DNA of 64,000 nucleotides. Source: Stegostoma tigrinum. Taxonomy: Eukaryota. Of the stretch, positions 2,051-64,000 are shown in pieces; positions within the stretch are counted from its first letter, which is position 1, and the number at the start of each line of letters is the position of its first letter. The notes beneath the pieces are model-generated. The model made no database searches. It saw nothing but the letters and a program-made list of their open reading frames with translations, and was not told the origin of the DNA. A program made the translations under genes and the position numbers. The stretch lies in assembly GCF_030684315.1 (NCBI RefSeq), contig NC_081355.1, forward strand, positions 122,218,674 through 122,282,673, in the 5' to 3' direction.

Positions 2051-3150
2051 TTGCTGTAAAGAAAATTGCTGCGCAGAGGCTGGTATCCCATGATCGACTC
2101 ACCCTTTATTTACATGTAGAAGGTCCTTGATACTGATCCAGCTCCCTCAGAGCCAGCTCTCAGAGTGGAGAGGATGCTTGATACTCCTGATCTTTTCTGT
2201 CAACCAGGGCTCCCTGATTGGACCAGATTAACAGCTCCAATCAGAAAACTCACATTCTATAAGGTCCACCGACTGACTTCATTTACAATCACCACATCCT
2301 GTCACCTCTGAGTCCGAAGATGTAGGCTGGCTCTTTTCTTTTGTCGCATCTCCTGGGGCATTTCAGCACTGGCTCAAATTCCTCCAAAACTGCTTTGGAT
2401 ACAGGCAGTGTGTAAAGCACAGTAGCTCACTTCTTGCGCCCAGAGCAACTCACAAAAAATTCATTCTCTTACATGATGACATAGAAACGTAGAAAATAGG
2501 TGCAAGAGTAGGCCATTGGCTCCTCAAGCCTGAACCACTGCATAGCCGATCATGCAATCTCAGTATCCCACTCCGGCTTTCTCTCCATATCTTTGATCAC
2601 TCTCACTTCACCTTCAAATGGGTGTAATCCAGTCTTGTCAACTCTTGCAGCCCATGTAGGTCACTTGGGGTGTCTGGAACATACATTTTTCTCTTCTAAG
2701 GTTTACGTGCTCCTGGGAGAAATATTTCAGGATTATGTCCTTGTTCTCTAAGCGCTCTTTATCTTTAAGCGCTTGTGATCCAGATAAATGGCAGCCTGGG
2801 CTAGACCTTGTAACATGTTTTCCATTGTTAGCTAAAAAAATGCATAGGCTGACAATACCCCAAATGGCAGTTTCATATGTTGGTACAAAAACATATTGTT
2901 CTCAAATCTAGCTGACTTCTGTGAATCTTCATCCAACCACAGGTGAAGGTCCAGCTTCATGAAGGACCGCACCTCTGCCAACTTTGTGTATAAACCTTGG
3001 AAGTGAGGAGTTGGGTATTTATCCAGCTGTGAAAAACTCTGGAGTCCACAGTGAATTTTGTTAAAGTCTGGTTTCTGCGATCACTGAAACAGCCACACCA
3101 GCTTCCTTTAGAACTGGTTGACTATTTAACCAGACTTTAATTTTGATTGG

Positions 3151-3244
3151 AACAAAAACAAAGTTGCTCGAAAAGCTCAGCAGGGCTGGCAGCATCTGTG
3201 AAGGCAAAAAGAATTGACATTTCGGGCCTGGTGACCTTTCCTCG
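3151..3244 (-). mobile_element. Penelope-derived mini-insertion, family B, nested in the Gypsy element
   Basis: aacaaaaacaaagttgctcgaaaagctcagc...gacatttcgggcctggtgacc; TSD ttttgattgg at 3141-3150 and 3245-3254. Confidence 0.8.
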
Positions 3245-4004
3245 TTTTGATTGGTTCTGATTTGGATGTTGCTAAGCAATCTAACTGTTCCAAACCAGAT
3301 ATAGGTGGGCTTTCCTGGATACCAGCCTATGAGTCCTCTTACTCAATTTTGGCCCAGTGGAGCTCTTTTGGCATCTCAAGTCCACATACCATCAGCAACT
3401 AAAATAGCCTGCCGGCCTGGATCCTGAAGAAAATGTTAACCTGTTGGTTAAGGCTTAGCTTTGTTTTGGGGTTTTGCTGTTGGCTCTCCTGCAGTCCCTT
3501 TGTTCAGGATATGTACTGAGTTAGGCTATAAAATTGCCTTCATCCAGGTAGTGTTCCTGAAGGTCAGGCAGACTGGCAAGTATGTCCATTTCCATTGCAA
3601 TACCGTGCAACTCAGGCTCCACTTGCTGCATTTTCCAATTATAAAGCCAGTTAACGTATCTGTTTGAAATCTACTTGGACTTCAGCCAGTGGCACTTTTG
3701 CATGATTGCATCATTAGTCTCACATACCAAATGGTCTCTCAGCATCCCATTAAGGGTTAAACGAGAGTCATATGCCTTTGCCAATCATTTATGCTCAGTC
3801 AAAAATTCTGATATAATTCCCCTGTTTTTTCAAATTGCCAAGTAAAACTAGCAGCACTTCAGAATTAGAGGAGGCTTGGGGTCATAATATTCCATAACTA
3901 AATCTGTCAATTCTTGAAAGATCTTAGTATCTGGTGCCCTAGGCGAAGTCAGGCTGCTAAAAGAACTGAAAAAGCTATGGGTCCACATGCTGTCAGGAGA
4001 ATTA

Positions 4005-4109
4005 CTGAGATAACAAGGTATAGAGCTGGATGAACACAAAAGGCCAAGTCACATCGGAGGAACAGGAAAACTGACGTTTCAGGCCTGGACCCTTTTTTCA
4101 GAAAAAGGA
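4005..4109 (-). mobile_element. Penelope-derived mini-insertion, family A, nested in Gypsy gag
   Basis: Matches the 3' end of the Penelope at 4641-5403; TSD aggagaatta at 3995-4004 and 4110-4119. Confidence 0.8.
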
Positions 4110-4640
4110 AGGAGAATTAATTGTTTCCTTTCATCTGCCCCAGTGTCAATAGCCTGGAAAAGAAAACGCATTCTTTCCACATACTGGGCCCAGGCTTCAA
4201 CACCAGGATCAGATGAGTCAAGCTTCCCAATAATGGCGTGATGCCAGAAATGCTTCCCCCAATTCAAAGATGAGTTGCAAGTGAATTTCTTTAGGAGCGT
4301 GCTTTGTTCTCAGTGCCACTGAAATAAATCCACACAGTTCACTATCCCAACACCAAGTCACTATTATTTACATGTGGAGAGTCCTTTCAAAGATCCAGTT
4401 GCCTCAGAGCCAGCTCTCAGAGTGAACAGGATGTCTGACACTCCTGTTCTTCCCTGTCAGCCAGGGCTCCTGGTTAGACCAGATTAACAGCTCCAATCAG
4501 GGAGCTCATATGCTTTGAGGTCCTCCGGGCTGACCTCATTACATTCACTGCAGAAAATAGATTGCTTTCTGCTTCAGGGGTCAATCAAGCACACGGAGGT
4601 GGCAAGACAACAAAGAACAAGTCATAACACAACATCATTC

Positions 4641-5403
4641 TGGGGACCGCTTTGCAGAATACATTGGGGAAACCAAGCGGAGGCTTGGGGACCGCTTTGC
4701 AGAACACCTCCGCTCGGTTCGCAATAAACAACTGCACCTCCCAGTCGCAAACCATTTCCACTCCCCCTCCCATTCTTTAGATGACATGTCCATCATGAGC
4801 CTCCTGCAGTGCCACAATGATGCCACCCGAAGGTTGCAGGAACAGCAGCTCATGTTCCGCTTGGGAACTCTGCAGCCCAATGGTATCAATGTAGACTTCA
4901 CCAGCTTCAAAATCTCCCCTTCCCCCACCGCATCCCAAAACCAGCCCAGTTCTTCCCCTCCCCCCACTGCACCACACAACCAGCCCAGCTCTTCCCCTCA
5001 CCCACTGCATCCCAAAACCAGTCCAACCTGTCTCTGCCTCCCTAACCTGTTCTTCCTCTCACCCATCCCTTCCTCCCACCCCAAGCCGCACCTCCATCTC
5101 CTATCTACTAACCTCATCCCACCTCCTTGACCTGTCCATCTTCCCTGGACTAACCTATCCCCTCCCTACCTCCCCACCTATACTCTCCTCTCCACCTATC
5201 TTCTTTTCTCTCCATCTTCAGTCCGCCTGCCCCTCTCTCCCTATTTATTCCAGAACCCTCACCCCATCCCCCTCTCCGATGAAGGGTCTAGGCCCGAAAC
5301 GTCAGCTTTTGTGCTCCTGAGATGCTGCTTGGCCTGCTGTGTTCATCCAGCCTCACATTTTATTGTCTTGGATTCTCCAGCATCTGCAGTTCCCATTATC
5401 ACC
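4641..5403 (+). mobile_element. 5'-truncated Penelope-like element (GIY-YIG C-terminus, 3' UTR, hammerhead motif)
   Basis: YIGETKRRLGDRFAEHLRSVRNK...RRLQEQQLMFRLGTLQPNGINVDF; pyrimidine-rich 3' region; ccgatgaagggtctaggcccgaaacgtc at 5276-5303. Confidence 0.88.
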
Positions 5404-8539: not shown

Positions 8540-9975
8540 TCATGATACATTCACATGTATTTTAACAAAGGAGATTACAAAGGAGATTAGGAAGAAAAAG
8601 GAAGTCCATGTAAATTGTTATCTGTAGGTGAATCATATTTTCAGATAGAATAATAAATAAATTTATGCACTGGCTTGAGCTAAGGAGCAAAAGAAAGTGC
8701 AAAAAATGCAATGTAAAACCAGAGAGGGGAAAGGCTCCTAGAGTGTGTTCAGGGAATTTTCTAGAGCAGGATATATTCAGCCCAGTGAAAAAAAAACACA
8801 GCTCAACCTGGTTCTTAGAAATAAGGTAGCTCAAGTGGATCAAAGTCAGAAGTCACATGACACCGGGTTATAGTCCAGCAGGTTTATTTGAAATTATAAG
8901 CTTTCAAACCTCTGCTTCTTTGTCAGGTGAAATGGATCAAGAGTCAGTAGGGGGACATTTAAGGGATGTTATGCCATAATGTTTAGGTAAGCTATAGACA
9001 AGGACAAGGAACAATCCAGGGTAAGCAGAATTCACTGTGGGAAACCAGCTTCAGTGAGGCAAGATTGGATCTGGTCAAGATAAATTGGGTTCAAAGATTA
9101 GGCAGGAAAACTCTAACGGAACGATGGAATTTAAAGAAGGCGCAACTCAAATCTAGTTAAGGTTTATCCCCATGAAGTGGCCAGATAGTCCAGAGATCCC
9201 TGGATGACAATGGAGATAGAAATGAAAATAAGTAGGAAAAAATGTGTTCATGGCAGATGTCAGCTGGATAATGCAATTGAGAACCAGAATTTACTGGGGA
9301 ACTGATAAAGCGAATACAAAAGTAAAAGAGACAGTAAAATATGTGACAGTCTTCTAATATAATGGGGAATCCAACAATCTTCCATAAATATCAAAGGGAT
9401 GGCTAAAGGAGTTCTACGACAAATTAGTGACCAAAAATATGAAGCAAGAGCCCTGGCTGAGCTATTAAATAAATATTTTGCTTCTAACTGAAGGACTCAG
9501 ATGCCAGATAAGTCATGGTGAAAGAGAAGGCCATGCAGATATTTGAAGAGTTTCAAATTATTTAAGAAAGGTATTGAATTAACCATCAACATTTAAATAT
9601 AATAAGGCACCATGAATAACCAAGATGTGTTCAAGGATACTAAAGGAAGTGAGAGATGGAATTGCAGCAAAACTGGCCATAATTTTCTAACTTTCCTTAG
9701 CCGCAAGAGTGGTTTCAGAACTACTGCATTTCAAATGTTACACCATTTTTCACAAGAGCATGCAAAGCTCAGCAACTATAGGCCAAAGAGTTTGGCCTCA
9801 GTAATGTGGAAGCTTTCAAAAAGAGAATTTGGAATAAAATTCATTATCACATGAAGAAAATGGTGCAAATTTATTAAGGAGACCCAGCTTAGATTTGGTA
9901 AGGGCAAACAATGTTTCGCTAGTTTGCTGGAGTTTTTGAAGAGGTAATAGAGAAGATGGTGATGGCTGTGTTGTA
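8540..9975 (+). mobile_element. Old CR1 LINE ORF2 fragment
   Basis: Degenerate CR1 motifs: caactataggccaaagagtttggcctcagtaatgtggaagctt (NYRP.SL.SV..KL) and ggagtttttgaagaggta. Confidence 0.7.
8844..8932 (-). mobile_element. Penelope-type terminal mini-insertion, family C, with degenerate hammerhead
   Basis: Reverse complement reads cacctgacaaagaagcagaggtttgaaagcttataatttcaaataaacctgctggactataacc; TSD tggatcaa at 8836-8843 and 8933-8940. Confidence 0.6.
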
Positions 9976-15221: not shown

Positions 15222-15653
15222 GTTTGAAAGGGAACAGTTAACTGAGTTAGTTCTAGTTGAGAAATAGCTGGGGAGGTGACATTTCTTTACTACTGTCTAT
15301 TGCAGACCCACATTTACTGGTCAGCTTACTCATAGCTGATTCCCAATAAGGCCAATCCTATTTTGTGTGGAGCTGTAGGAATCTCAAATGCTGAAACAGG
15401 GCACAAAGACATCCCATTGGGGTAATGGTGACCCTGATCAGATCACTTCTCACTGTATATCACAAACTCATGGAGGGCCCCAAGGGAATCATTCTTGGCC
15501 CTGAAACGTGGCCAATTCACCGCAGATTAACTGGGAAGGAAGTCTTTCAAAGAGTATTAAACATAATGTATCTTTGTAACACTATATTGAAAGCCGTCCT
15601 TTACCAAAGCAGGATGTCTCACTAGATTGTTGTATTTTGTTTTATGAATTCAT

Positions 15654-16080: not shown

Positions 16081-16753
16081 GGAGATAGTAGGACTGCCGA
16101 TGCTAGAAAATCTGAGGTAACAAGGTGTAGAGCTGGGTGAACACAGCAGGCCAAGCAGCATCAGAGAAGCAGGAAAGCTCACATTTTGGGTCTGGACTCT
16201 TCTTCAGAAACTTTCTGAAGACCATAAATGACCATAAAAAACACAAAATTAAGGAGGCAATATTTCTTATGATACAACAATGTCTCGAAAGTAAAATCCA
16301 AACCCTGAAGCTGAGCAGTTAATACACTCCAATTTTTAATGGATTCAACTGAAGCAATGAATAGAATATTAGAGAGTACAGATGCTAATGTAGATGTCCT
16401 AAATGGTTTTGTTAATCACTTCAATTTTAGGACAAAAATATACCTGAAGGACAACCATTTAAAAGGGAGAGTTCAGCTTTTAGGGGAATCTGCAGAAAAT
16501 TTCATTATTGACCTTTACCAATTAGTAAGCAACTAAATATGGAGTTTTGAAATCTGAGATGAGATAACAAGGTGTAGAGCTGGGTGAACACAGCAGACCA
16601 GGCTGCATCAGAGAAGCAGGAAAGCTCACATTTCGGGTCTGGACACTTCTTCAGAAAGTTTCTGAACAAGAGCCCAGACCCAAAATGTCAGCTTTCCTGC
16701 TTCTCTGATGCAGCCTGGTCTGCTGTGTTCACCCAGCTCTACACCTTGTTATC
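16081..16753. mobile_element. Composite Penelope-derived insertion: family-A terminus + inverted copy of flanking DNA + family-A palindrome
   Basis: 14-bp TSD tcatctcagtactg at 16067-16080 and 16754-16767; internal 16227-16553 is the reverse complement of 15654-15980. Confidence 0.85.
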
Positions 16754-16826
16754 TCATCTCAGTACTGCTTGTGATCTAATGTCACCTAGCTTGTATTCTT
16801 GCATTCACCCATGATGTTTAAATTCA

Positions 16827-18580: not shown

Positions 18581-20534
18581 ATTTCAAATGAAATTTAAAT
18601 TTTAAGAGATTGCCTGTGTACTTCTTTGGATTGAATTTGCAAATCTATCTATCACTAATAAATCTCTATCTGTGTAAGTAAGTATTAAATTTCTAATGTT
18701 GCAGCTATCAAGAAATTTTTAATAGTATTTTTTGTCAGGTTTGTGTATTGTGTGGATATGAAAAGCATCAGATTACCTGCAGTTACTAATTAGATCCAAG
18801 TCATGCCCTTCTTTTGGAATTGAATATCAGCCATTTCAGTTATGGTAAAGGAAAAGTCAGAAATATGTGACAATGATACTCATAAATCACACACCACTCG
18901 TGGTGGCCATTCCGCCCATCATGTCTATGCTGGGTCTTCACTCCCCGTCTCTGAGACCATAACATTGCAAATGATTCCTTTTCAAATATATATCAAATCT
19001 GTTATGCGAGCTATTGGAGAGAATAATGAAGCCAATTTGTGAGTGGACTTCTTCAGCAACTTATTAGTTACAGGTAAAATTCATCTGGTACCTGCTTTGG
19101 GTTGATTTGCGCCAATAATTCTATTGAAATTGTGCACAATAAGTGTATAGAGCAGTGCATTTCTTTGTGTTTTCAAATATGAAGTGGTAATCTACTTATT
19201 AATGTTCTGGTATTTCATTATGTTTCAATATTTAAGCAAATATTCTTTGAAATTAGCCAGACAGCCTACAAACTATAGTTAATAACTGCTTTATTTTTTT
19301 AAAATAATTCACTTGAACTGATGATTTGATTAATGTATTGAGTTCAATGTATTGATTATTGATAAAAATGTTCAACTGATAATTTACCTGAACTGACAAA
19401 TTGATTTATGAGTTTGAGGTATTAAGTTTTAGGTTAATGTGTTTGCTGAATTATTTGCGATATGTAAAATTGTTGCAAAGAGCTTAAATCCACACAAGCA
19501 CAGTTGTTTTTTCCATAACAGCTAGCTTACAACATTTTTTTCCTTCTGTCTGAACTTTGCTAATCAATGATTCCCGTACAGCCAATTCTTGTTCCATAAA
19601 TGATCTCCTTCTCATAATGTTATCAAGATGTCAAATCTTCAACTTTAATTTTTATCATTGTAATTGTATAATTTCCAAAATATCCTTTATTTTGTATGTT
19701 TAATTTTCACATTTTGGGATGAACTGATAATGAGGTAAAGTATGTTATTCAGTCATATCACTATTTTCTTTGCAGGAGTTCACAATTAACATGAATCACC
19801 TAACAAGAATAACTAGCTAAGTAGAGTTAACTGTAATAAGAAAATGTAATTAGTTTATCGCGCAGAATTAACTTGATAGTTTAATCTTGATATATTAATT
19901 TAATTAATTCACTTGAATGTTTTATTTTATCAGTTAGAAGTTTTTTTAAATATGTTAAAGGAAGTGGAAACACTGATCTAATTGTTTGATCACAATAACA
20001 AATGATAAAGGAATCCTTGACTGGCTATTTGTCCGAAAGAACAGTGAGCATGGAGAGCATACAGTTCCGTTGTGATTTGATCATAAATTGATTAGCAGTG
20101 TATTAGCCCAAACTACCCTGCATTTGGATTTACTGTTGTTCTAATAGCTACAGAAATGAAAGTGACTAATGTTAGGTCTTCACTTAAAACTAGATATGAC
20201 ATGGACTTTAGCACCAGATAGCCTTATGATCAAATTGTGCTGCAGAATTTTAAGTTTTGGATCTGGTTAGTGTATTGGAAAGTAGCAAACAATGAAAAGT
20301 GATTTTTGATAGCTGAGAAGCTATCTTTTAAAGATATAAATCTCATCAAAATAAGACATTTTGTAGAAACAACAACATCCCATGAGTGAATAACAACTGA
20401 TTATTAGCATACTTCTGCATAAAATTCTTTCATGATTATGCCTTCCCTTGAGATATTTATTTACTTGATAAGCTGAGATGGCAGTTAGTGGAGTTAGATT
20501 TCCTCTACTTATTAGCCGAGGTGTTTGTTTAAAG

Positions 20535-21215
20535 TTTTGGCAAAGTTCTGTAGCTGGGGTTGTGGATGAGGTTGTTGACTTGCTCGCCGAGCTGTTTGTT
20601 CTCATTCAGACGTTTTGTCACCATGCTAGGTGACATCATCAGCGGATCCTCCGATGGGGCGCTGTTATTCTATTCCTCTTGGAATTTATATTGTTTGGAC
20701 AGATATGGTGAGTGCTGTCATTTCTGGTTTTGATCTGAATGGGTTTATATATGGGGTCCAATTCTATATGTTTGTTGATTTGGTTATGGGTGGAAATCCA
20801 TGCCTCTAGGAATTCCTGTGTGTGTCTGTTTTTGGCTTGACTATAGTTACCTTGTCCCAGTTAAACTGATGGCCTTCACTGTCTGAATATACAGATAGTT
20901 TTGCTGTTAGCTGATGTTTATGTACTTTGATGGCTAGTTCTTGTTTGTCTGATGTAATGTTTGTGGCAGTCATTGCATGGTATTTTGTAAGCCACATTGG
21001 TTCTGCATGTTGTGGGAATGGGGTCTTCAATCCTTATAAGTGTTTGTCATTGTGTGGCTGTGAGCTCGTGGACCAAAGCGATTCCCAGTGGTCTTAGAAG
21101 TCTTGTCATCAGTTACGTATGTTCCTGATGTCAGGCAGTGTGGTCAGTGTGTTGGGTCATACTGTGTCCTGTTGTTTGTTATGTAGGTACCTGTGGATGA
21201 AGTTGCGGGGTTATC
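20535..21215 (-). mobile_element. Penelope-like element 3' part, family D: GIY-YIG fragment and terminus
   Basis: Minus strand DPIPTTCRTNVAYKIPCNDCHKHYIRQT...HQFNWDKVTIV; hammerhead motif at 20609-20642. Confidence 0.8.
20609..20642 (-). ncRNA. Minimal hammerhead ribozyme motif (GAAA mutated to AAAA)
   Basis: CUGAUGA U GUCACC uagcau GGUGAC AAAA CGUC, with a perfect 6-bp stem II. Confidence 0.65.
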
Positions 21216-22656: not shown

Positions 22657-23116
22657 GAATCATAGAATACCTGTACAGTGGAAGCAGGCTATTCGATGTA
22701 TCAAGTCCACACTGACCCTCTGCTCCTGAGATGCTGCTTGGCCGGCTGTATTCATCCAGCTCCACACTTTGTTATCTCGGATTCTCCAGCATCTGCAGTT
22801 CTCATTATCCCTCCAAAGAGCATCCTACTTAGACCCACCCTACCTATCCTATCCCTGCAAACCTGCATTTCCCATGATTAATCCACCTAGCCTGCACATC
22901 CCTGGGGTACACGATGGGCAATTTAGTATGACCAATCCACATTATCTGCGCACCTTTACACTGCGGGAAGAACCTGAAGCACTCGGAGACAGCACACGCA
23001 AACATGGGAAGAATGTGCAAACTCCACACAGGCAGTTGCCTGAAGGTGGAATCAAACCCGGGTCCCTGGTGCCATGAGGCAGCAGTGTTAACCGCTGAAG
23101 CACTGAGCTGCCCCAT
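22657..23116 (-). mobile_element. HE1-type V-SINE with a nested family-A Penelope terminus (about 22720-22810)
   Basis: Reverse complement: ggggcagctcagtgcttcagcggttaacactgctgcctcatggcaccagggacccgggtttgattcc...tgtggagtttgcacattcttccc, ending in a HER1-like tail. Confidence 0.85.
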
Positions 23117-34991: not shown

Positions 34992-35116
34992 GAAGGAGGG
35001 TCTCAACCCGAAACGTCAGCTTTCCTGCTCCTCAGTTGCTGCTTGGCCTGTTGTGTTCATCCAGCTTCAGACTGTTTTATCTCAGATTCTCCAGCATCGG
35101 CAATTCCTACTATCTC
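34992..35116 (+). mobile_element. Family-A Penelope mini-insertion
   Basis: TSD tgtgaaatct at 34982-34991 and 35117-35126; starts at the hammerhead core ctgaaggagggtctcaacccgaaacgtc. Confidence 0.85.
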
Positions 35117-37419: not shown

Positions 37420-37925
37420 ATTTTGTTGAATCATGGCGCAATTCAACTATGAAGAGAGATTAAACAGTCTCGGTTGTTTGCTTGAAAACAGAGATGTCTG
37501 ACGGGCCCGAAACGTCAGCTTTTGTGCTCCTGAGATGCTGCTTGGCCTGCTGTGTTCATCCAGCTCCACACTTTGTTATCTTATGTCTGATGGGTGTCTG
37601 ATTGAGATACACAAAGTCTGAGGGGCATAGGGTAGATAGAGAGAAACCTTTCCCCTTCATAAAAGGGTCAATAACCGAGAGCACAGTTTTACGATAAGGA
37701 GCAGGCAGTTTAGAGGGAAGTTGAGGTTTGTGTGTATCTGAAACTCAATGCCTGAAGGGGTGGTAGAGATGGGAACACTCAGAATACTTACTAATCATTT
37801 AGATGAGCACTTGAAACACCATTGCACATAAGGTTATGGATCAGGTTCTGTAAAATGGGAGTAGAATAGATGATGTTTAATGACCAGCATGGATATAATA
37901 GGCTGAAGGGCCTCTTTCCCTTCAG
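37420..37925 (+). mobile_element. CR1 3' fragment with nested family-A mini-insertion (about 37502-37582)
   Basis: CR1 tail sequence; the insertion is flanked by atgtctga at 37494-37501 and 37583-37590. Confidence 0.75.
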
Positions 37926-38421: not shown

Positions 38422-38658
38422 GAGAGATAACAATGTGTGGAGCTGGTTGAACACAGCAGCCCAAGCAGCATCTTAGGAGCACAAAAGCTGACATTTCAGG
38501 CCTAGACCCTTCATCAGAAAAAGCTTTTTCTGATAAAGGGTCTAGGCCCGAAATGTCAGCTTTTGTGCTCCCAGGAGGCTGCTTGGCCTGTTGTGTTCAA
38601 CCAGCTCCACAAATTGTTATCTCAGATTCTACAGTATCTGCAGTTCTCATTATCTCTG
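38422..38658. mobile_element. Palindromic (head-to-head) family-A Penelope mini-element
   Basis: Perfect centre tcagaaaaagctttttctga; TSD gcattgatagcat at 38409-38421 and 38662-38674. Confidence 0.9.
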
Positions 38659-40089
38659 ATAGCATTGATAGCATTGTGTTCTTTTTTTAATTGGAAATGC
38701 ATTCATTTTCATTTGTTAGAGTTTAGCATGCTAAAACTCACTTAAATTAACATGGTAAACAGAAATGCCACAGATGCTGAGAACCTTTTGTAGAGGTAAA
38801 TATATTTGAAATGTAAGTCACTTCACTTTTTTTTAGCTTTTTACTTTTACCTCCAAAGTATAGCGAGATAGCACATTGCAACAGAGTTCATTCATTCAAA
38901 TTAAAACCCCATCTAGCCAGAAAGCAACAGGAGAACATGAAAGCTTTTAGTTAATATTAGCACAGCATAAAATATTATCTTTCATAGTTTAGTTCAACTT
39001 TCATGCTAGAATGTACACATTTATAGATAGTCTTGACAACAGTCAGTATCCTGTTTGTTGATCATGTTTTTGGATGTGATTTTACATTCTGTGTGTTGTT
39101 TTCATTGTGAGTGACAACACATCTGTGATTCTTTTATCAGTTGCTTCTAAAAATATCTTCTTAAGGCAAGGTCAAGGATAATTTACTCCTAGCAGCCAAG
39201 GCTGGAGTGTTTTAGATATTGAAGAACACTGTGGCCGTCAACACATAAAGTCTATTGCAGATTGTTAGAGCTTTCAGGCTCACAATGCCTCTGCAGTTTT
39301 AGATTTAATGCAGAACAACAACTGAACATGAGGATATTTTTTTATTCCATAACTTGTCATCTATTTGTATGTTTAGATATTTTAATATCTAGCTTTGTAT
39401 AACATTACTGATTAACTGATCAGCACAGTATGCTATGTACCAGTTTTACAGATCATGTAATCGTGCATTGACAAAAGTTATTCTTAATGTCTGGCTCCCA
39501 TTGATGACTTGCCACAATGCCTGTCTCTCCATTAGACTAATTACAAGTTTAAATATTTCAGTAAATTGTATAATATTAGATTACCACTTGGCTCAAATGA
39601 TGCATAATTTAATAAGTTCCGATCAGACCCATCATTGGCATCTCTAAATAACACGGGAATGTTTTGACTATAGCAAAGTATTTTGAGAACGAATAGCTCA
39701 TGCGGTTAATATGAAGATCTGCACAAACTGTGAGTTTCGTGTACTATAGCATCTTCTCCAGAGTCAGTCTTTAAATCCATGTATTCCTGCACTCAAAGAA
39801 GTTCATCAATGTTTGAGATAGCTTTTTAAAAACATTGTATGAAATCTATGCAGCAGGATTGTGTATTCTAGCCATTTAATGATACCAAATCAGTTTATAG
39901 TTAATATCATCTCTACTGATGCAGTTAAGACTTCCATCATAGGTTGTTGAGCATTTGTTTAGTTGATATGCATTTGTTACGATTATAATCTAGTCTGATT
40001 CATGATTAAGCCCAAGTCTGTTCAAATGAGGTGTTCAGCTCCACGCTGACTGCTTCACCAGTCACTTTTTTGCGAGATAGAAAAGTATT

Positions 40090-40256
40090 CTCTCTCTCTC
40101 TCTGGGCAATGTGTCACCCTCAGTCACCAGCTATCCATTCCACCCTTCCCCAGCTATCTTCAATTTTGATGAATGATTGCTGGACTCGAAATGTTAACTC
40201 TCCTCTCTCTACAGATGTTGCCAGACCTGCCTAGTTTCTCCAGCATTTTCTGTTTG
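40090..40256 (+). mobile_element. Decayed family-B-like Penelope terminus
   Basis: ggactcgaaatgttaactc...acagatgttgccagacctgc; TSD-like tag(a/g)aaagtatt at 40078-40089 and 40257-40268. Confidence 0.6.
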
Positions 40257-40946: not shown

Positions 40947-41820
40947 AATAATGGGAACTGCAGATGCTGGCGAATCCGAGATGACGAAGTGTGGAGCTAG
41001 ATGAACACAGCAGGCCAAGCAGCATCTTAGGAGCACAAAAGCTGATGTTTTGGGCCTTCATCAGAAAAGGGGGAGGGGGAGAGGATTCTGAAATAAATAC
41101 AGAGACAGGGGGAGGTGGATAGAAGATGGATAGAGGAGAAGATAGATGGAGAGGAGACAGACATGTTAAAGGGTCGGGGATGGAGCCTGTAGAGGTGAGT
41201 GTAGGTGGGGAGGTAGGGAGGGGATAGATGAGTTCCGGGAGGACGGACAGGCCAAGGGGGCGGGATGAGGTTAGTAGGTAGGAAGTGGAGGTGCAGCTAC
41301 AGGTGGGAGGAGGGGATAGGTGAGAGAAAGAGCAGGTTAGGGAGGTGGGGACGACTGGGCTGGTTTTGGGATGCAATAGGGAGAGGGGAGATTTTGAAGC
41401 TTGTGAAATCCACATTGATACCAATGGGCTGCAGGGTTCCCAAGCGGAATATGAGTTGCTGTTCCTGCAACCTTCGGGTGGCATTGTTATGGCACTGCAG
41501 GAGGCCCCGGGTGGACATGTTGTCTAAGGAATGGGAGGGGGAGTTGAAATGGTTCACGACCGGGAGGTGCAGTAGTTTATTGCGAACCGAGCGTAGGTGC
41601 TCTGCAAAGCGGTCCCCAAGCCTCCGCTTGGTTTCCCTGATGTAGAGGAAGCAACACTGGGTGCAGCAGATGCAGTATACCACATTGGCAGATGTGCAGG
41701 TGAGCATCTGCTTGATGCGGAAAGTCATCTTGGGGCCTGGGATGGGGCTGAGGGGGGAGGTGTGGGGGCAAGTGTAGCACTTCCTGCGGTTGCAGGGGAA
41801 GGTGCCGGGTGTGGTGGGGC
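40947..41820 (-). mobile_element. Penelope-like element 3' part with a largely readable GIY-YIG domain
   Basis: ORF 41297..41866(-): GTFPCNRRKCYTCP...CTSANVVYCICCTQCCFLYIRETKRRLGDRFAEHLRSVRN...GTLQPIGINVDF. Confidence 0.92.
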
Positions 41821-42636: not shown

Positions 42637-42639
42637 ACA

Positions 42640-43734: not shown

Positions 43735-44750
43735 AGGTGAAAAATGGCAGATGGAGTTTAATCTGGACCTGTGTGAGGTGATAAGTTTTAGGAGACCAAA
43801 TGCAACAGTAAATTATACAGTAAATGGCAGGATCCTCAGGACTACTAATATTCAGATGAAGATAGCAAAGTGTAGGGCTGGATGAACACAGCAGGCCAAG
43901 CAGCATCAGAGGAGCAGGAAAGCCGACGTTTCAGGCCTAGACTCGGGTCTAGGTCCGAAACATCAGCCTTCCTGCTCCTCTGATGCTGCTTGGCCTGCTG
44001 TGTTCAACTAGCTCTATGCCTTATCATCTCAGATTCTCCAGCATCTGCAGTTCCTACTGTCTCTGATATTCAGACCAGTCTTGGGATGCAAGTCCATAAC
44101 TCCCCTGAAAGTGGCAACACAACTGGGTAAGGCATGCGTGCCTTTATAGGTCAGGGCATAGAGGAGAAAGGTTGGCAAGTCGTGTTGCTGCTTTGGTCTG
44201 GCCACATTTGGAGTAGTTAGTACAGTTCCAGTCTAGACTAGCTGTAGTTGCTCTAGGATGAACAGGGTTTGGAGAAGCTGTAAAAGAGGTTTACCCAAAT
44301 ATGCCTGGATTGAAGTGTATAAGCTATAGAGAGAGGTTGGACAAACTTGGATTGTTTTTGTTAGAGTGTCAAATGCTGAGGGATGATCAGATGGAAGTAA
44401 ATAAAATTATGAGTGGCACGGATAGGGTGGATAGTTGGAGTCATTTTCCCAGGATGAAAGTTTCAAATACGAAAGGGCATGGGTTTAAGATGATGGGGGG
44501 AGCATTTACAGGAGATGTATGAGGCAAAACTTTGTTTCACACATGGAATGTGCTTCTAGGAGAGGTGGTAGAAGCAGATACGATAGCAACTTTGAAGAGG
44601 CATTTAAATAACACATGAACAGTTAGGGAATTAAGTTTTACTGACCATATGCAGGCTAATGGGATTAGTTTGGAGTGGCATCATAGCCGTCACACATATG
44701 GTGGGCAGGTGGGCAGGTGGGCCTGTTGCTGTGTTGTACAGTTCTATGTC
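43735..44750 (+). mobile_element. CR1/HER1 fragment
   Basis: tggcagatggagtttaat; MPGLKCISYRERLDKLGLFLLE. Confidence 0.85.
43857..44065. mobile_element. Palindromic family-A mini-element nested in CR1
   Basis: Inversion centre lies inside hammerhead stem II (ggcctagactcgggtctaggtcc); TSD atattcaga at 43848-43856 and 44066-44074. Confidence 0.9.
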
Positions 44751-46196: not shown

Positions 46197-46386
46197 TAAC
46201 AACACAAACAAAAACAAAGTTGCTGGAAAAGCTCAGCAGGTCAGAACTTCTGCGGAGGCGTCACCGGACCCGAAATGTTAACTTTGTTTTCTCCTCCACA
46301 GATGCTGCCAGACCTGCTGAGCTTTTCCAGCAACTTTTGTTTTTGTTCCTGATGTTCAGCATCTGCAGTTATTTTGATTTTTATTT
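46197..46386. mobile_element. Partially palindromic family-B mini-element
   Basis: aacaaaaacaaagttgctggaaaagctcagcaggtc...gacctgctgagcttttccagcaacttttgtttttgtt; TSD aggatattcc at 46187-46196 and 46387-46396. Confidence 0.88.
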
Positions 46387-46944
46387 AGGATATTCCCAAT
46401 GATGGTTATGTCCAGAACCAGGAATCATCGTTTAAGGATAAGGGGTAAACCTGCTGGGATAGAGATGAGGAAAAATTTCTTTACCCAGAGAGTGGTTAGC
46501 CCGTTGAATTCACATCACAGAAAATGGTTGAGGCCAAATCACCTGGTGTTTAAGAAGAAGCTATAGTTCCTATGGCTAACAGGATCAAGGCATATGCGGA
46601 GGTAGGTTTTATGGTGGGGAGGGTTGGGATGGCCAGGACAGGTTTGGGGTATTGAGCTTGGTGATCAGCCACAATCATATTGATTAGCAGAGCAGGCTGA
46701 ACAGGTCAAATGGACCACACTTGCTCCGATCTCCTATGCTTCTATGAAATGGAAAGACAACCCACCAACATACGCACCTTTGTTACATTATACTGGTTGA
46801 AAACCAATTAAAATTTATTGTAAGATGCCACCTGGAATAAGTCAGTCTGCCTCTGGGTTTCCCAAGGTACCAAGGAACAGGCTTGATACCTGCACAGCAG
46901 CAGTTCAAGTTGCCAATGCTCCAAGCAGGCAGTGGTATTTTCCA

Positions 46945-47077
46945 GTGATAACGGGAACTGCAGATGCGGGAGAATCCAAGATAATGAAATGTGAGGCTGG
47001 ATGAACACAGCAGGCCCAGCAGCATCTCAGGAGCACAAAAGCTGACGTTTCGGGCCTAGACCCTTCATCAGAGAGGC
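46945..47077 (-). mobile_element. Family-A mini-insertion with intact hammerhead core (47044-47071)
   Basis: 15-bp TSD cagtggtattttcca at 46930-46944 and 47078-47092; CUGAUGAAGGGUCUAGGCCCGAAACGUC. Confidence 0.9.
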
Positions 47078-47819
47078 CAGTGGTATTTTCCATGTCTGCC
47101 TGACCTCAGCTGTGACTGCAGCCTATCATGTTTTCCCACAAGATGTTAGGCCAGCTGCACAGGGGACTTATTAATGCAAATGTTAAAATTTGGTAAGAGG
47201 AGAATCCAGATTAAGTTGCCCTGTCTTGCTCTTAGCTAGAAACGACAGCCTCTTTAATGCTGCAGATTTGATACTCTAGCTTTAAGAACTACCACACTGT
47301 CCTTAATTAAATAGTAAGCCTGTCCACTGGATACCAGTTGGCTAAATTGTGGATAAAGCGCACTGCTGAGCAACTGCTTCCCACACTGAGCATGCATCTG
47401 ACCCTCATTTGACCCTAAGACTGGGGACTAAATGCTGGAATTTGTTTCAAAGAAAATTTTAACTTGTAAGTACAAATCTAATGTTGTTTATCATTATCAT
47501 CTAACTGAAATCTAGTTTTAATTCTCAAGTTCCCAGCCATGAGCAGGGTTTTGATAAGGACTCCATTGGAAGAGCAGTTCAGCTTGTTAATTAAACAAGT
47601 TTCTGAAACCTGTTCCACTGTAACTGTGATAGGCCATTTGTGTTAAGAGGTTATAAAATTGGCCAATTAGTATGAATTATCACTCCTATTTAAAGTAGAG
47701 TGATGGATTTAGATGATTAAAGGAGATGGGGAAGAAGGAGATAAAAGAAGCTTCCTTTTAAATCCCTGCACCTTTTTAAGTTTCAACAAAAAAAATCCCT
47801 GTTCTGCCAGATGAGAAGC

Positions 47820-47950
47820 TAATTAAAAACCAAAAGAACTGTGGACGCTGTAAACCAGGAACACAAACAGAAGTTGATGGAAAAGCTCAGCAGGTCTGGC
47901 AGCATCTGTGAAGGAAAAATAAAATCACTGTTAATATTTTAGGCCCGGTG
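47820..47950 (-). mobile_element. Family-B terminus
   Basis: aaaaccaaaagaactgtggacgctgtaaaccaggaac...aaaagctcagcaggtctggcagcatctgtg. Confidence 0.75.
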
Positions 47951-47972: not shown

Positions 47973-48080
47973 TTTGATCATCCTTTTCTGATGAAGGGTC
48001 TAGGCCTGAAATGTCAGCTTTTGTGCTCCTAAGATGCTGCTTGGCCTGTTGTGTTCATCCAGCCCCACACTTTGCTATCG
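47973..48080 (+). mobile_element. Family-A mini-insertion
   Basis: ctgatgaagggtctaggcctgaaatgtc at 47988-48015; TSD ttgatctaag at 47963-47972 and 48081-48090. Confidence 0.85.
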
Positions 48081-51698: not shown

Positions 51699-52019
51699 AG
51701 TAACATTTCGGAAGCAGCTAGAAATCAGGAAATGGAATGGATGGACGATCTTGGGGGGGAATTACAATCAACCAGAAAGGCGTACTGAGCAAATTGTTAG
51801 ATTAAAAGGCTGATAGCTGCCTGGTTCCTGATTGACTTTGGCCTGGGGTCTTAAAGAAGTGGCTAGTGAAATAGTGGATGCATTGTTTTAATTTTCCAAA
51901 ACTCTCTTGATATGGGAAAGAGATAATGGGAACTGCAGATGCTAAGGAATTCCAAGATAATAAAATGAGAGGCTGGATGAGCACAACAGGCCAAGCAGCA
52001 GCTCAGGAGCACAAAAGCT

Positions 52020-52047
52020 GACGTTTCGGGCCTAGACCCTTCATCAG
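52020..52047 (-). ncRNA. Minimal hammerhead ribozyme motif, intact core
   Basis: CUGAUGAAGGGUCUAGGCCCGAAACGUC on the minus strand. Confidence 0.7.
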
Positions 52048-52708
52048 AGAGGGGGATGGGGAGAGGGAACTGGAATAAATAGGGAGAGAGGGGGAGGCGG
52101 ACCGAAGATGGAGAGTAAAGAAGATAGGTGGAGAGAGTGTAACACCTCCGCTCAGTCCGCAACAAACAACTGCACCTCCCAGTCGCAAACCATTTCCACT
52201 ACCCCTCCCATTCTCTAGATGACATGTCCATCATGGGCCTCCTGCACTGCCACAATGATGCCACCCGAAGGTTGCAGGAACAGCAACTCATATTCCGCCT
52301 GGGAACCCTGCAGCCATATGGTATCAATGTGGACTTCACCAGTTTCAAAATCTCCCCTTCCCCTACTGCATCCCTAAACCAGCCCAGTTCGTCCCCTCCC
52401 CCCACTGCACCACACAACCAGCCCAGCTCTTCCCCCCCACCCACTGCATCCCAAAACCAGTCCAACCTGTCTCTGCCTCCCTAACCGGTTCTTCCTCTCA
52501 CCCATCCCTTCCTCCCACCCCAAGCCGCACCCCCAGCTACCTACTAACCTCATCCCACCTCCTTGACCTGTCCGTCTTCCCTGGACTGACCTATCCCCTC
52601 CCTACCTCCCCACCTACACTCTCTCCACCTATCTTCTTTACTCTCCATCTTCGGTCCGCCTCCCCCTCTCTCCCTATTTACTCCAGTTCCCTCTCCCCAT
52701 CCCCCTCT

Positions 52709-52736
52709 CTGATGAAGGGTCTAGGCCCGAAACGTC
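52709..52736 (+). ncRNA. Minimal hammerhead ribozyme motif, intact core
   Basis: ctgatgaagggtctaggcccgaaacgtc; predicted cleavage after GUC at 52736. Confidence 0.7.
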
Positions 52737-54027
52737 AGCTTTTGTGCTCCTGAGATGCTGCTTGGCCTGCTGTGTTCATCCAGCCTCACATTTTATTATC
52801 TTGATATGGGAAAGCCCCATTTGATTGAAAGATAGCGAATATAACTATTTTTTATTCCAAAAAGGAAGAATACAGAAAGCAGGAAAGTACAGGCCATGTA
52901 CTTCTATATCCGTCTTAAGAAAATGTTGGAAACTATTCATAAGAAGTTATAGCAGCGTGTTTAGGTAAATTCAAGGCAATTCATGCAGTGTCAACATGGT
53001 TTTGAGAAGGGGAAGTTATGTTTTAACAATTTTATTGGTGTTTTTTAAAGGAAGCAATATGTGATCAGGATAAAGGGGCACTTGTAGATGTTCTGTTCCT
53101 GGATTTTGTGAAATCATTTGATAAGGTGGCTCATTAGAGGTCTCATGGAAAATAAGAATTCATGGTGAAGGGGCATATTTGCATGAAAAGAAGATTGGTT
53201 GTCTAACAGGAGTCAGTGTATCAGTGTAAATGGGTCTTTTTCAGGTTGGCAAGATATAGTGATTGATGTGCTTCAGGGATTGGTGCTCGGACATTAACTG
53301 TTCGCAATTTGTATGAATGGCTTGTATGAGAGGACGGAAAGTATGTTGCCAAATTTGCTGATGATGCAATGAAAAACATGAAATGTAATTTGTGAAGCAG
53401 ACGTAAGGAGTCTACAAAAAGATATAGATAGGTTAAGCCCTGGCAAATGGAGTAAAAGTGGGAAAATGCGCAATTGTCAATTTTGACAGGTAAAATAAGA
53501 AAGAAATAAACTAACTAGATGGTGAAAAATTGTCAAGTTCTGGGCTGCAAAACAATCTGGTTGCCCTTCTAAATCTCAAAAGGTTATTGTGCAGGTGGAG
53601 CAGGTAATTCGGAAACCTAATTGAATGTTATTATTATTTCAAGAGGAATTGAATCCAAAAGAAAGGAGGTTAGTCTCCATTATACAAGCCACTAGTGAGG
53701 CTATGTCTGGGAGTACTGTACACAATATTGACCACCTAACTTAAGGAAGGAAGCAACTGCATTGGGGCTAGTTCAGAGAGGATTTGTTAGACTAGTAACC
53801 ACTAAATGTGTTGTCTTTTGAGGAAAGATTCAACAGTCTAAGCTTGTATCACCTGGAGTTTAGAAGAGTAATAGGCATCTTGATTAAAAGCTGAAAGAAT
53901 CCTGATGAGTCTTGATACTGTGGATGTGGAGCAGATGTATCTTCTGTTGGGAGAATTGAGAACTGGGGATCACTGTTCAAAAATAACAGTCACCCATTTA
54001 TAAAAGATAAAGGTTTTTTTATTTTTC

Positions 54028-54165
54028 TGAAGAATGGTCTTGACCCGAAACATCAGCTTTCCTGCTCCTCTGATGCTGCTTGGCCTTCTGAGTGCATCCG
54101 GCTCTACACCTTGTTGCCTCAGATTCTCCAGCATCAGCGGTTCCTACTGTGTCTGTAACAAGTTT
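54028..54165 (+). mobile_element. Family-A mini-insertion
   Basis: ctgaagaatggtcttgacccgaaacatc; low-complexity TSD tttttttatttttc at 54014-54027 and 54166-54179. Confidence 0.8.
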
Positions 54166-58507: not shown

Positions 58508-58605
58508 GATGCTGGAGAATCTGAGATAACAAGGTGTAGAGCTGGATGAACACAGCAGGCCAAGCAGCATCAGAGGAGCAGGAAAGCTGATGTTTCTGGC
58601 CTAGA
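58508..58605 (-). mobile_element. Family-A mini-insertion
   Basis: 15-bp TSD ttctctattgaatga at 58493-58507 and 58606-58620. Confidence 0.88.
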
Positions 58606-61490: not shown

Positions 61491-62923
61491 GCCAATGTCA
61501 CATTTTCAATATGAATCTCCTAAATAATTATTAATAATGTGTACCTGAAAAGAGGCAGTTATTCCAGAGGAGTAAATGCACTATCAGCCTCAATGGCCTA
61601 TACCATTTGAGGCCAAAATATCTGCAAAGCAATTCCCTATTTGTGTTCACTTGGATATAATACTTGAATGAGATCCATCGATATGTGATTGGGATACATG
61701 CAGGCAACAGGGTTAGGTACCACCTGACATGTCACTGACAACGCAATTCATGATGGATGAGCAGACTCCAAATACCAGGGAGAGGAGACGGACAAACAGG
61801 AGGAAAACATCCTGAACTCAGGCTCCTCATGGCAGCCAAGGAGGTGATATTGGGGATTACTGATGAGGGGGGATCAGGGTTAGTGACAGACAGTGAGGCT
61901 GATTGAGCCAGGAGTAGAGACGAAGTGACAATCATCCTGCTGGTGGCAATTGGGCGATTCTTCATCTGGTTCTTTTTGTTTCCACAGCAGAATGTCTCCA
62001 TCCAAGGACAATGCCACAGCCAAAGGGAGTGTTTAAAGACTCCACCTCTGGTGACATAGCAGCCAGTTTGCTGGTGGATGCAATGACATCTGTCTGATTG
62101 GCAATGTCTGCCGTACAGTTATGCCCACACAGTCTGTGGAACATTTCTGTGTACATTCAGGCGGGCAATCTGCTAAGCATAGGCACATGTGTCCCAGCAG
62201 CTAATGGCAGGTGTTCTAGTTGAATTCCCAGATGTTTGAAGGGCTGCTGAAGTCCAATCCCTGCTGGGCCCATTCTTGGTGACAGCTCTCTGGATTTGGT
62301 CATAAGAGCCTGCCATATTCCAAGCATTTGAGTGTATGGCCTCATCCACGAAGTGGATGGCGACTAAGTCAATTATTTGATTATATGCGCTCTGATCTGC
62401 ATTCCATTGCTCTAACCAAGGCTCAGTGCAGCACTGGCCAGGATAAAAGGGGACTAAGACCTGAATCTCCTTCCAGAAGTCACTTTCTCACAGGAAGAAA
62501 GGCAGATTATATTGCTCACCTGGATAGAAGAGGAATATGTGCCTTAGCTCCAAGATATTCATCCCAGGACAGCTGCAGTGTTAGTGACATTTCCTCATCC
62601 CCACCCACCCTTGATCCCAAAATATTCAGCAGGTGAGGCTGGGGATGACACCTTTGCACCTGAGCAGAAGGCTCCCAGTACATTGTAGTTATCAAGGGTC
62701 CATACTTCAGCAGACACCCACGGTCATCTAAAGCAACAGGACATGGCTCTGCAGAGACTCTTTCCACATCAGCTCTGATGTCAGGGTTACACTGAGATGC
62801 CATGAAAGGAAACCGAAATTGAAAGAAATATGAGCAAGAAGTCAGTGCCAGTGATCTTTCGATTTTTGCTCTGAAATGTTAAAATAAACACTGTAATCAA
62901 TCATAATTAACAAGAACTGATGG

Positions 62924-63159
62924 GACAAAAACAAAGCTGCTGGAAAAGCTCAGCAGGTCTGGCAGCATCAGTGAAGGTGTAAACAAAGTTAACATTTCCG
63001 GTCCGATGAGCTTTCCTCAGAACCTGCGAGGAAGGGCCAAGGACCTGAAACGTTAACTCTGTTTTCTCCTTCACAGATGCTGCCAGACCTACTGAGCTTT
63101 TCCAGCAGCTTTGTTTTTGTTCTTGATTTACAGAATATGCAGCTCTTTTGGCTTTTATT
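62924..63159. mobile_element. Palindromic family-B mini-element
   Basis: Two inverted termini; TSD aagaa(c/t)tgatgg at 62912-62923 and 63160-63171; minus-strand hammerhead ggtt-CUGAGGA...GAAAUGUU-aacu at 62987-63024. Confidence 0.9.
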
Positions 63160-63275
63160 AAGAATTGATGGAAGCTTATCATCATTTCAAGTATATTGGT
63201 AACGACATGCCACATGTTTCCCACAATGTGATAGCTAGAGAGAAAAAAAGAGATTCAGATGTTATTCCTGAATGA

Positions 63276-63489
63276 GATAACAAAGTACGGAGCTGAAGGA
63301 ATACAGCAAGCCAGGCAGCATCAGAGGAGCTGGGAAGCTGACGTTTCGGGTCGGGACCCTTTTTCTGAAGAAGGGTCCCAACGCGAAATATCAACTTCCC
63401 TGCTCCTCTGATGCTGTCTACACTGCTGTTTTTCTCCAGCTCCACGCTGTGTTATCTCAGTCTCCAGCATCAGCAGTTCTTACTATTTC
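63276..63489. mobile_element. Palindromic family-A mini-element
   Basis: Centre gggaccctttttctgaagaagggtccc; TSD ttattc(c/t)tgaatga at 63262-63275 and 63490-63503. Confidence 0.9.
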
Positions 63490-64000
63490 TTATTCTTGAA
63501 TGATGTGTGTTGCATTTTCTTGCAGACTTTTTTTGGATGTTCAAGTGAACTGCTGCTTCTGTAGTGATCATTCTGTGGAACACAGCGTTAAATGCAGACA
63601 CAGTTGGCCTCCCACCTCTGCACTCTAATTATCAGCAAAAGTAAGAGAGACTGGTGCTCTTGCATTCAGAGAAATGTTACTGGAGCAGAATACTTCTGCA
63701 AGGCAGGCTATTTCTTCAGGGTCCATGTACCACAATGATGTCCTTTGTAGCAGTACTTGAGCGTGAGTGATAGCACTCAGTCCCCATTCTATTCTGGGTG
63801 ATTGAGAATATAACCATAGAGTTAACTCAGCAAAGGGAAGATGGCATAGTCTTCACTCCAGGAAAATGTTGGAAGTCTGGTGATGGAGCAATAGTGACAT
63901 AGAATCATCATTATTGTTCAAATCTTGTAGAGATCAGGTTGTTCCTGGAGCATTTTTCCATGGAAATGACATTTATGACAGGCTTATTGGAATTAATGGG

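Follow-up and report, generated by a model that had tools for sequence, protein, structure and literature searches.

Introduction

Penelope-like elements (PLEs) with an endonuclease (EN+), of the Neptune or Nematis type, carry a frame for reverse transcriptase (RT) and GIY-YIG with a DKG motif and a CX2-5CxxC linker, and are heavily truncated at the 5' end (PMC8557442; PMC3846280; published work is cited throughout from the passages that concern the point at hand). We analyzed a 64,000-nucleotide stretch of the 3.2-Gb genome of Stegostoma tigrinum (contig NC_081355.1, positions 122218674-122282673; hereafter the window), in which a first-pass annotation had described short, hammerhead-bearing PLE insertions and read them as retrotransposed ribozyme cassettes. 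The most abundant terminus family among them, family A, shares with canonical EN+ PLEs the partial tandems that form pseudo-long terminal repeats (pLTRs), an adjacent inverted and 5'-truncated copy, target-site duplications (TSDs) of variable length and a hammerhead in the pLTR; canonical elements bear a tail of 30-40 bp on one end, and the tail of family A is likewise one-sided. Unlike canonical EN+ PLEs, family A has by extrapolation about 5x10^5 insertions, mostly stubs of at most 260 bp, and its ribozyme lies approximately 165 nt before the likely start codon and not across it.

The ribozyme resembles the minimal hammerheads that Cervera and de la Pena (2014, PMC4209133) described in metazoan PLEs, with the same CUGANGA, unpaired base before stem II and GAAA, and likewise with G10.1-C11.1, a palindromic 15.2-16.2 and a short helix I; helices I and II are 2 bp and 3-4 bp in family A, whereas they are 4-5 and 7-8 bp in S. 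mansoni. According to the same paper, such hammerheads are mostly solo and tied to truncated PLEs, and opposite-strand pairs 100-700 bp apart were noted. Frangieh et al. (2024, PMC11167929) reported for PAc, a Poseidon element of Anolis, that the PLE protein nicks and extends both target strands, that RT starts at two adjacent internal sites matching the tail, that unprocessed RNA is the main template, that a PLE dimer is predicted and that protein-assisted ribozyme cleavage is not needed for insertion. The two adjacent start sites, the extension of both strands and the unprocessed template are like the situation proposed here, and AT-leaning targets are common to PAc and this genome (TSDs 64% AT). 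The PAc ribozyme overlaps the start codon, unlike that of family A, and the passages cited neither link each site with one strand of a single insertion nor account for inverted copies or stubs. The origin of PLE inverted repeats with a one-sided tail has been called undefined (PMC8557442), and the role of the ribozyme in PLEs open (PMC11167929). Non-LTR retrozymes are short, non-coding, PLE-derived and hammerhead-bearing, and have been reported in one chondrichthyan, with a mean unit of 363 bp (bioRxiv 10.64898/2026.07.22.740005). Retrozymes are defined by at least two consecutive units, each with a hammerhead; the window copies are single or inverted without tandem units and fall outside this definition, whereas two arrays elsewhere in the genome (L212 and L213) fall within it.

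In L1 twin priming, an inversion arises when the second strand is primed on the RNA, at an upstream position and without duplication of the 3' end, unlike in the present pairs, in which both arms hold the same terminus. LTR strong-stop DNA arises from priming near the RNA 5' end, which gives a short run-off cDNA; in contrast, the process proposed here would need no tRNA primer, and the run-off product itself would be inserted. Miniature inverted-repeat transposable elements (MITEs) are likewise short, palindromic, TSD-flanked and of high copy number; unlike them, the present insertions have TSDs of 8-19 bp, unequal ends, varying palindrome centers and a retroelement parent, and two thirds are single arms.

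The inverted truncated copy, the one-sided tail, the variable TSD and the pLTR hammerhead have been published (PMC8557442, PMC3846280, PMC4209133). New here are the rule that a pair has one tailed and one short arm, the coupling of arm lengths and the position of the 5' ends approximately 30 nt below a TATA-like box. A literature search, which did not cover most subscription papers, Repbase or supplements (those of PMC11167929 and PMC4209133 may bear on the point), found no run-off or two-strand account.

Results

Origin of the insertions

A core scan combined with self-BLAST yielded 23 insertions in the window, 17 of them of at most 260 bp and 6 longer, confirming a population put at about 20 short insertions by the first-pass annotation. 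By terminus they fall into four unrelated families, with 22 arms in 16 insertions for A, 7 arms in 5 insertions for B and one copy each for C and D; the 17 family-A calls correspond to 16 insertions, as 16082-16756 was counted as one. The population was sampled in 114 blind 10-kb tiles (1.14 Mb), on which the family-B statistics also rest. These tiles contained 189 family-A insertions, i.e., 166 per Mb or approximately 5.3x10^5 genome-wide if large contigs are typical, and 130 of 179 copies were stubs of at most 260 bp. The population had been called dense; this holds only mildly, with 17 family-A calls in the window against 10.6 expected from the tiles (P ~0.04). Below, L-numbered loci are stretches elsewhere in the genome, outside the window unless said, and signed positions (+ or -) count from C3, the initial C of the hammerhead core, taken as 0.

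Family A is an autonomous EN+ PLE, with an RT and C-terminal GIY-YIG frame continuous with the terminus. Three window copies (4660-5400, 40948-41820 and 52143-52803) extend upstream into a GIY-YIG-like frame, and a first look genome-wide gave 203,789 candidates for this endonuclease piece. Locus L061 holds a 951-aa frame in which YIDD, DKG, a CX4CX2C linker and GIY-YIG were recognized by eye, and L062 holds one of 873 aa; the two frames matched RVT_1 (E 7e-6) and GIY-YIG (E 0.003), both below the Pfam cut-offs, and the 951-aa frame had no match among PDB sequences at E<=0.1. The L061 frame is colinear with the window copies, and the stub sequence of the window sits approximately 140 nt past its stop. 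In the tandem copies L183 and L184, the terminus runs on into and beyond the tail as far as a probable start codon near +165. The likely start of the family-A frame lies in L183 (minus strand) from approximately +165 past the core, with low-complexity T/A/P-rich repeats between the N-terminus and RT. A CX2-5CxxC linker is characteristic of Neptune and Nematis, and Penelope/Poseidon elements lack it (PMC8557442); judged from its motif, the CX4CX2C linker would place family A in Neptune or Nematis and exclude Penelope/Poseidon. A CCHH-type zinc-finger motif was also seen by eye in the family-A linker, and none was seen in the L096 piece related to the family-D copy.

The Penelope origin claimed for the whole population was shown for families A, B and D, but not for C. 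Family B is linked to a PLE frame in L175 (tblastn E 2e-29) and also in L079, and family D weakly in L096 (E 5e-4). No linked PLE frame was found for family C in 34 anchored copies or 30 loci; its tail and inversion anatomy is the same. A 60-base family-B piece searched against its own genome gave no match.

The majority sequence of stubs equals that of long copies in all three family-A subfamilies (of which A2 is young), indicating that the stubs are not a family of their own. A separate non-autonomous cassette family was therefore rejected, and so was a self-amplifying family resembling short interspersed elements: there is no stub-specific sequence, the TATA-like box lies upstream of the stubs and no tRNA gene was found. 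A MITE was rejected because the TSDs are not of fixed length, the ends are unequal, no transposase domain was found in 91 window frames and the parent is a retroelement. As the first-pass annotation had held, these are retrotransposed PLE termini, with TSDs that vary from 8 to 19 bp and sequence continuous into the RT-GIY-YIG frame. We consider it very probable that the insertions are truncated and inverted PLE ends, mostly inert. A recurrent join of approximately +1246 to -80 through -89 (L197, L206, L208 and L209) suggests a shared, internally deleted non-autonomous derivative.

Anatomy of arms and pairs

The family-A sample comprised 250 arms once 3 double calls were removed; 10 tile-edge arms were excluded from the 5'-end counts and 12 singles too near an edge from the TSD calls, and 3 family-B-like singles were kept in arm and pair counts and excluded from the comparison of stub and long-copy sequences and from later analyses. 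The 3' ends were bimodal, lying at +90-97 ("short") or +125-131 ("tailed"), approximately 30 nt apart. Singles were split evenly in type (60 tailed, 58 short). In contrast to 30.5 pairs expected, 58 of the 61 inverted pairs combined one tailed with one short end (P 1.6e-14). The same combination was found in 21/23 pairs of family B, in the one pair of family D and in 17/22 rows of family C, the last with loose pairing at mostly search-picked loci. Arm lengths were coupled, with 13 long-long, 44 short-short and 1 mixed among 58 pairs (Fisher P 4e-12), and were correlated among the 13 long-long pairs (rho 0.71). TSDs were detected in 45/61 pairs and 26/116 singles, as against 2/189 in a control with shifted flanks, with a length of 8-19 bp and a mode of 13-15. 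At the 14 sites for which TSDs had been claimed, the blind scan recovered 8-15 bp at 13, and the 10-bp duplication at 47973 was seen by eye.

The 5' ends also piled up. In family A, 59 of 240 fell at -7 to -1 and only 2 at -14 to -8; the pile-ups lay at -5 to -1 in family B (19/91) and at -10 to -7 in family C (23/63). A TATA-like word was present at -34/-35 in 163 of 254 anchored family-A copies, the remainder being largely stubs that start below the box, and it occurs once in 400 nt of the A1 reference. It recurs at -34 in family B (L073; a variant in L083), at approximately -37 in long family-C copies and at -47 in family D, and stands 29-31 nt above the pile-up in A, B and C. The pile-ups of B and C fall on words that resemble the general initiator consensus. 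TATA and initiator motifs have been noted in a rotifer pLTR (PMC3846280).

A proposed run-off model with priming on two strands

We propose a model of run-off copying and two-strand priming, which in its full form we judge to be probable, with room for doubt. It builds on features that are shown, namely PLE parentage, two 3'-end sites with one of each in nearly every pair, coupled arm lengths, the 5' pile-up below a TATA-like box and loss of the core in most copies; the steps that follow are inferred from these. A TATA box in the 3' untranslated region of an upstream copy would start transcription just before helix I, so that the ribozyme would be the first thing in the RNA. Such an RNA would carry two copies of the pair of RT start sites, the first 95-125 nt from its beginning and the other at the opposite end. 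Both nicked target strands would be primed, one per start site, on the same copy of the start-site region; priming at the near copy would give run-off cDNAs of 100-130 nt, i.e., the stubs, and priming at the far copy would give long copies. If one cDNA were kept, a single stub would result, and if both were kept and joined at their 3' ends, a palindrome with a one-sided tail would result. The stubs, which lack the TATA box, would be dead on arrival. The ribozyme would likely act in the RNA of the source element, trimming a leader of approximately 32 nt, and not in host transcripts. A more specific form, in which a paired RT primes both strands at two start sites of one RNA, the run-off cDNAs are strong-stop-like and the ribozyme is a 5'-leader switch that removes the first ~32 nt with the cap, seems to us evenly poised between right and wrong.

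The alternative that survives best is a self-priming hairpin, in which one strand (antisense RNA or cDNA) folds back and the endonuclease trims the ends 30 nt apart, leaving the one-sided tail. Fold-back of antisense RNA was proposed for rotifer PLEs (PMC3846280), and the tail was ascribed most likely to EN-mediated resolution (PMC8557442). Self-priming explains the coupled arm lengths and the likeness within pairs, whose two arms are more alike than other copies (50/55 rank below the median, a comparison confounded by age). In addition, 26 of 61 pair junctions overlap by at least 2 nt, which also fits self-priming; however, the other 35 are blunt or have extra bases. The short-ended arm reached further 5' in 25 of 58 pairs and the tailed arm in 17, and 16 were within 5 nt. 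A tail on the arm that extends less far 5' is beyond a simple cDNA fold-back, which was therefore rejected as the only route for the 25 pairs; copying of the first cDNA alone is likewise insufficient, as the tail needs another template. In vitro, a sense template was copied from two internal sites (PMC11167929). The 5' pile-up was alike in single stubs (29/118) and paired arms (30/122), indicating that fold-back did not make it. Overall, we regard self-priming as unlikely.

Another explanation leaves the rest of the two-strand model in place and takes the 5' pile-up as a hard RT stop, caused by RNA structure or by protein on the pyrimidine tract above helix I, and not as a transcript start. 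In every family the pile-up borders the ribozyme on its 5' side, where family A has a long pyrimidine tract. A cap-derived extra G at 5' junctions, which a transcript start could leave, showed no overall excess (9/32 against 8.9 expected), although singles alone gave 9/19 in a post-hoc split. However, polymerase stops usually come before, and not after, a structure, and the TATA-like word lies 29-31 nt above the pile-up in A, B and C. In family D, the box (-47) and the three 5' ends seen (-12, -16 and -21) are shifted upstream together, with the ribozyme unshifted. Moreover, seven loci (L185, L186, L191, L193, L196, L198 and L211) show a direct join between body sequence (+270 to +1390) and approximately -7 to -1; at L186 and L196 the other arm ends at -5, and at L198 both arms break at -2. 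Such joins are as expected if RT jumps from an RNA 5' end to another RNA end, and they look like jumps off the end of a template. An RT stop thus appears improbable, more so than self-priming.

Several points count against the run-off and two-strand model. The transcript start just before helix I was placed from sequence alone, the end points given by BLAST are uncertain by approximately 3 nt, and the TATA evidence in B, C and D comes from 2-8 long copies each. Two of three long family-A references, which belong to older subfamilies, are without the exact TATA-like word, and 8 of 21 distinct non-array read-through copies start upstream of -14, indicating that other starts or read-through transcripts exist. 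The absent extra-G excess and the overlapping junctions belong here too. At the predicted cut site (+28) there was a small excess of 5' ends, 13 at +26 to +31 against 6.6 expected (P 0.018), and some templates may have been cleaved RNA; ribozyme cleavage as the main source of 5' ends was rejected, as the excess is minor. The data fit one RNA molecule and two RNAs of the same locus alike. Finally, the promoter of Penelope in D. virilis is TATA-less and internal, with a start within the pLTR well upstream of the ribozyme (PMC2377424; PMC4209133), and the TATA arrangement is therefore not universal.

The hammerhead ribozyme

Column-wise majority sequences with anchors placed outside the core, in which intact copies supplied the CpG-decayed sites, contain CUGANGA, a bulged base, a stem II whose first pair is G-C, GAAA and, as the palindrome, ACGU or AGCU in all of families A, B, C and D. 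The first pair of helix I covaries (U-A, U-A, C-G and A-U, respectively), and helix I has 2, 4, 4 and 3 bp; the caveat of the first-pass annotation that helix I is only about 2 bp in family A was correct. Core and helix pairing are thus kept in four families with differing flanks, no transposase was found in the window frames and TSD length is variable, so that none of the sequence-based grounds for refutation named in that annotation applied. These patterns indicate that the minimal type I hammerhead is genuine across the four families. A relaxed hammerhead descriptor matched 41 times in 404 kb and 3-12 times in 20 Markov controls. An Rfam search at E<=5 returned no hammerhead family, only sub-threshold microRNA (miRNA) and small nucleolar RNA matches.

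Individual copies are mostly decayed. A core, stem II and ACGU all intact were found in 43 of 244 family-A arms (~18%) and in 15 of 171 sampled stubs, and the core was broken or missing in 140 of the 171. The description "hammerhead-bearing" held for part of the 14 sites for which it had been given: 46945 is fully intact, five keep the core with variants (38422, 47973, 54028, 62924 and 63276) and in eight CUGANGA is disrupted or absent (3151, 4005, 8844, 34992, 37502, 43857, 46197 and 58508). In 51 long young family-A copies, the core carried 2 substitutions in 506 sites, compared with 188 in 6104 other non-CpG sites (0.4% vs 3.1%); with rare variants only, the values were 0.4% and 1.4% (P 0.046). 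This hints that an intact core is favored among mobilized source RNAs, i.e., selection on source elements, and cuts slightly against a purely neutral reading.

That the stubs are ribozyme cassettes cleaving host pre-mRNA, alone or by same-strand pairing, is very improbable. It is true that core and pairing persist across the families, that the share of intact arms implies on the order of 10^5 intact motifs in the genome, that the core of long young copies is less substituted, and that PLE minimal hammerheads are weakly active as dimers (PMC4209133) and cleave with protein help (PMC11167929). However, a single minimal hammerhead did not cleave (PMC4209133), and in the cited passages the cut site of PAc had no read ends (PMC11167929). 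Selection on source elements accounts for the low core substitution, most copies are without an intact core (1 of the 14 sites is intact), stubs match long copies, and Pfam found no host exon in the window among 91 frames of at least 85 aa, a search that would miss small exons. Folding gave helix I a pairing probability of 0.0 in all five constructs, with no active monomer predicted; in the two palindromes folded, the stem II probability was also 0.0, with the long hairpin predicted to enclose the ribozyme. Forcing two tandem units to dimerize cost approximately 33 kcal/mol relative to the free fold, in a model without tertiary contacts or proteins. The suggested dimer pairing fails for palindromes, as their arms are antisense to each other and cannot form a hammerhead dimer, and the intact same-strand copies of the window are kilobases apart. 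That palindromes form double-stranded RNA hairpins is plausible from the predicted folds, if the locus is transcribed; the minus transcript of 38422..38661 is predicted to fold as a single long hairpin.

A family-A unit of 332 bp (-87 to +250) is repeated in tandem at L212, L213, L215 and L216, as is a unit of approximately 348 bp at L214; the 332-bp unit holds the TATA-like box, ribozyme, tail and frame start. L213:2553-5390, on the contig of the window near 78.63 Mb, has 9 cores, 6 with GAAAC intact, and L212, L214 and L216 are tandem on both inverted arms. These arrays agree with the definition of a non-LTR retrozyme and are better candidates for hammerhead dimers than the window stubs.

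Insertions in the window

The site chosen by the first-pass annotation as a test mini-element, 52690-52760, is really the 3' end of an 883-bp inverted insertion, 51921..52803, whose long arm encodes the end of a GIY-YIG domain. This family-A pair consists of a tailed minus arm from -94 and a short plus arm from -567 with the GIY-YIG C-terminus, has a 16-bp TSD and carries one intact ribozyme on each strand, with cores at 52047 and 52709. On its plus strand, the TATA-like box position (52675..52682, -34 from the core and 30 nt above the 5'-end pile-up) has one base changed, and a predicted minimal type I hammerhead at 52707..52738 comprises a 2-bp helix I, CUGAUGA, a bulged A, stem II, GAAA and a palindromic ACGU, with the predicted cut after C 52736. 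In contigs from 4 sequencing runs of another organism (RNA by guess), loose ends lay at 52708 in 3 and at 52801 in 3, which are the same boundaries; they are uninformative on expression here.

Many sites had been called palindromic. Head-to-head palindromes stood at 7 sites, namely 5 of the 14 originally cited (38422, 43857, 46197, 62924 and 63276), plus 16560 and 51921. Among the further family-A pairs, 38422..38661 has a short minus arm and a tailed plus arm, each starting approximately 6 nt before the core, and a 13-bp TSD; 43857..44068 is joined inside stem II, so that neither arm has CUGANGA, and has a 12-bp TSD and collinear empty sites in 2 other repeat copies; and 63276..63490 is old, short plus tailed, with a 14-bp TSD. 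Within the single 14-bp TSD of the three-arm insertion 16082..16756 lie a tailed arm, 344 bp copied in inverted orientation from its own left flank, and a short-short palindrome; the cores are broken. In the region 15637-16767, the inverted flank copy is 97% identical to the original; this insertion likely arose by a template jump from an RNA end onto neighboring DNA.

Three family-A copies are longer single arms. The young copy 4660..5400 (plus) is 5'-truncated and tailed and contains the GIY-YIG C-terminus, 3' untranslated region, TATA-like box and a ribozyme with U4 changed; the young 454-bp copy 33860..34313 (minus) has an intact ribozyme (core starting at 33950) and a short end; and the middle-subfamily copy 40948..41820 (minus) is tailed and has a GIY-YIG piece and a ribozyme deletion. 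The young stub 46945..47077 (minus) runs from -5 to the tail with a 15-bp TSD and one extra G at the 5' junction, and is the only one of the window's stubs with a fully intact ribozyme. The middle-subfamily stub 47982..48079 (plus; cited site 47973) starts at -6 and has a short end, its core kept, ACGU changed to AUGU and the 10-bp TSD seen by eye. Old stubs are 4005..4109 (minus; short end, without core G8, TSD of 10 bp, with 3 other repeat copies showing collinear empty sites), 34992..35118 (plus; tailed, core A9 changed, 10-bp TSD), 54028..54165 (plus; tailed, core kept, stem II and ACGU decayed, 14-bp TSD) and 58508..58605 (minus; starting in loop II without a core, 15-bp TSD). Two more start within or past the ribozyme: 37502..37582 (plus) inside stem II, without CUGANGA and with a short end and a TSD of at least 8 bp, and 22720..22812 (plus) at +35, tailed.

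Family B is represented by the inverted pairs 46197..46388 (10-bp TSD, with 2 other repeat copies showing collinear empty sites) and 62924..63162 (12-bp TSD), both short plus tailed, and by the stubs 3151..3243 (minus; short end, starting at +2 of the core with CU missing, 10-bp TSD), 40145..40255 (plus; decayed) and 47819..47950 (minus; tailed, starting at +13). The family-C stub 8844..8932 (minus) has lost core G8 and has an 8-bp TSD, and the family-D copy 20533..20839 (minus) has the TATA-like box at -47 and has lost GAAA. The claim that the insertions nest in other repeats was borne out by collinear empty sites for 4 of the 14 cited sites (3151, 4005, 43857 and 46197), whereas the Gypsy and HE1 identities given to host repeats are putative; Pfam found no Gypsy domain in the 91 frames of at least 85 aa. 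The flank adjoining 46197 translates like pieces of long interspersed element (LINE) RT elsewhere in the window, which we take to be CR1.

Two other features lie nearby. Nested inverted repeats at 28214-28825 (203 bp at 97%, 50 bp at 100%) are in LINE-like RT sequence, are not PLE-derived and represent a recent local inversion or an assembly feature. A 152-aa frame at 13591-14046 resembles, by eye, the decayed thumb region of a divergent PLE and stands beside a weak family-A-like end at 13542-13590.

Conclusion

The observation of the first-pass annotation was partly confirmed and its interpretation partly supported. As objects, the insertions are ordinary: truncated and inverted PLE ends with a known minimal hammerhead, at a density near the average for the genome. 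Their value is that of a fossil record, in which pair and 5'-end counts give sharp tests of mechanism. For annotation, approximately half a million such insertions would be mislabeled as MITEs or miRNA precursors; the Rfam matches to them were all sub-threshold and included miRNA families. If the proposed mechanism is true, run-off cDNAs insert by the hundred thousand in this genome, and the ribozyme would be a leader switch on the element's own RNA.

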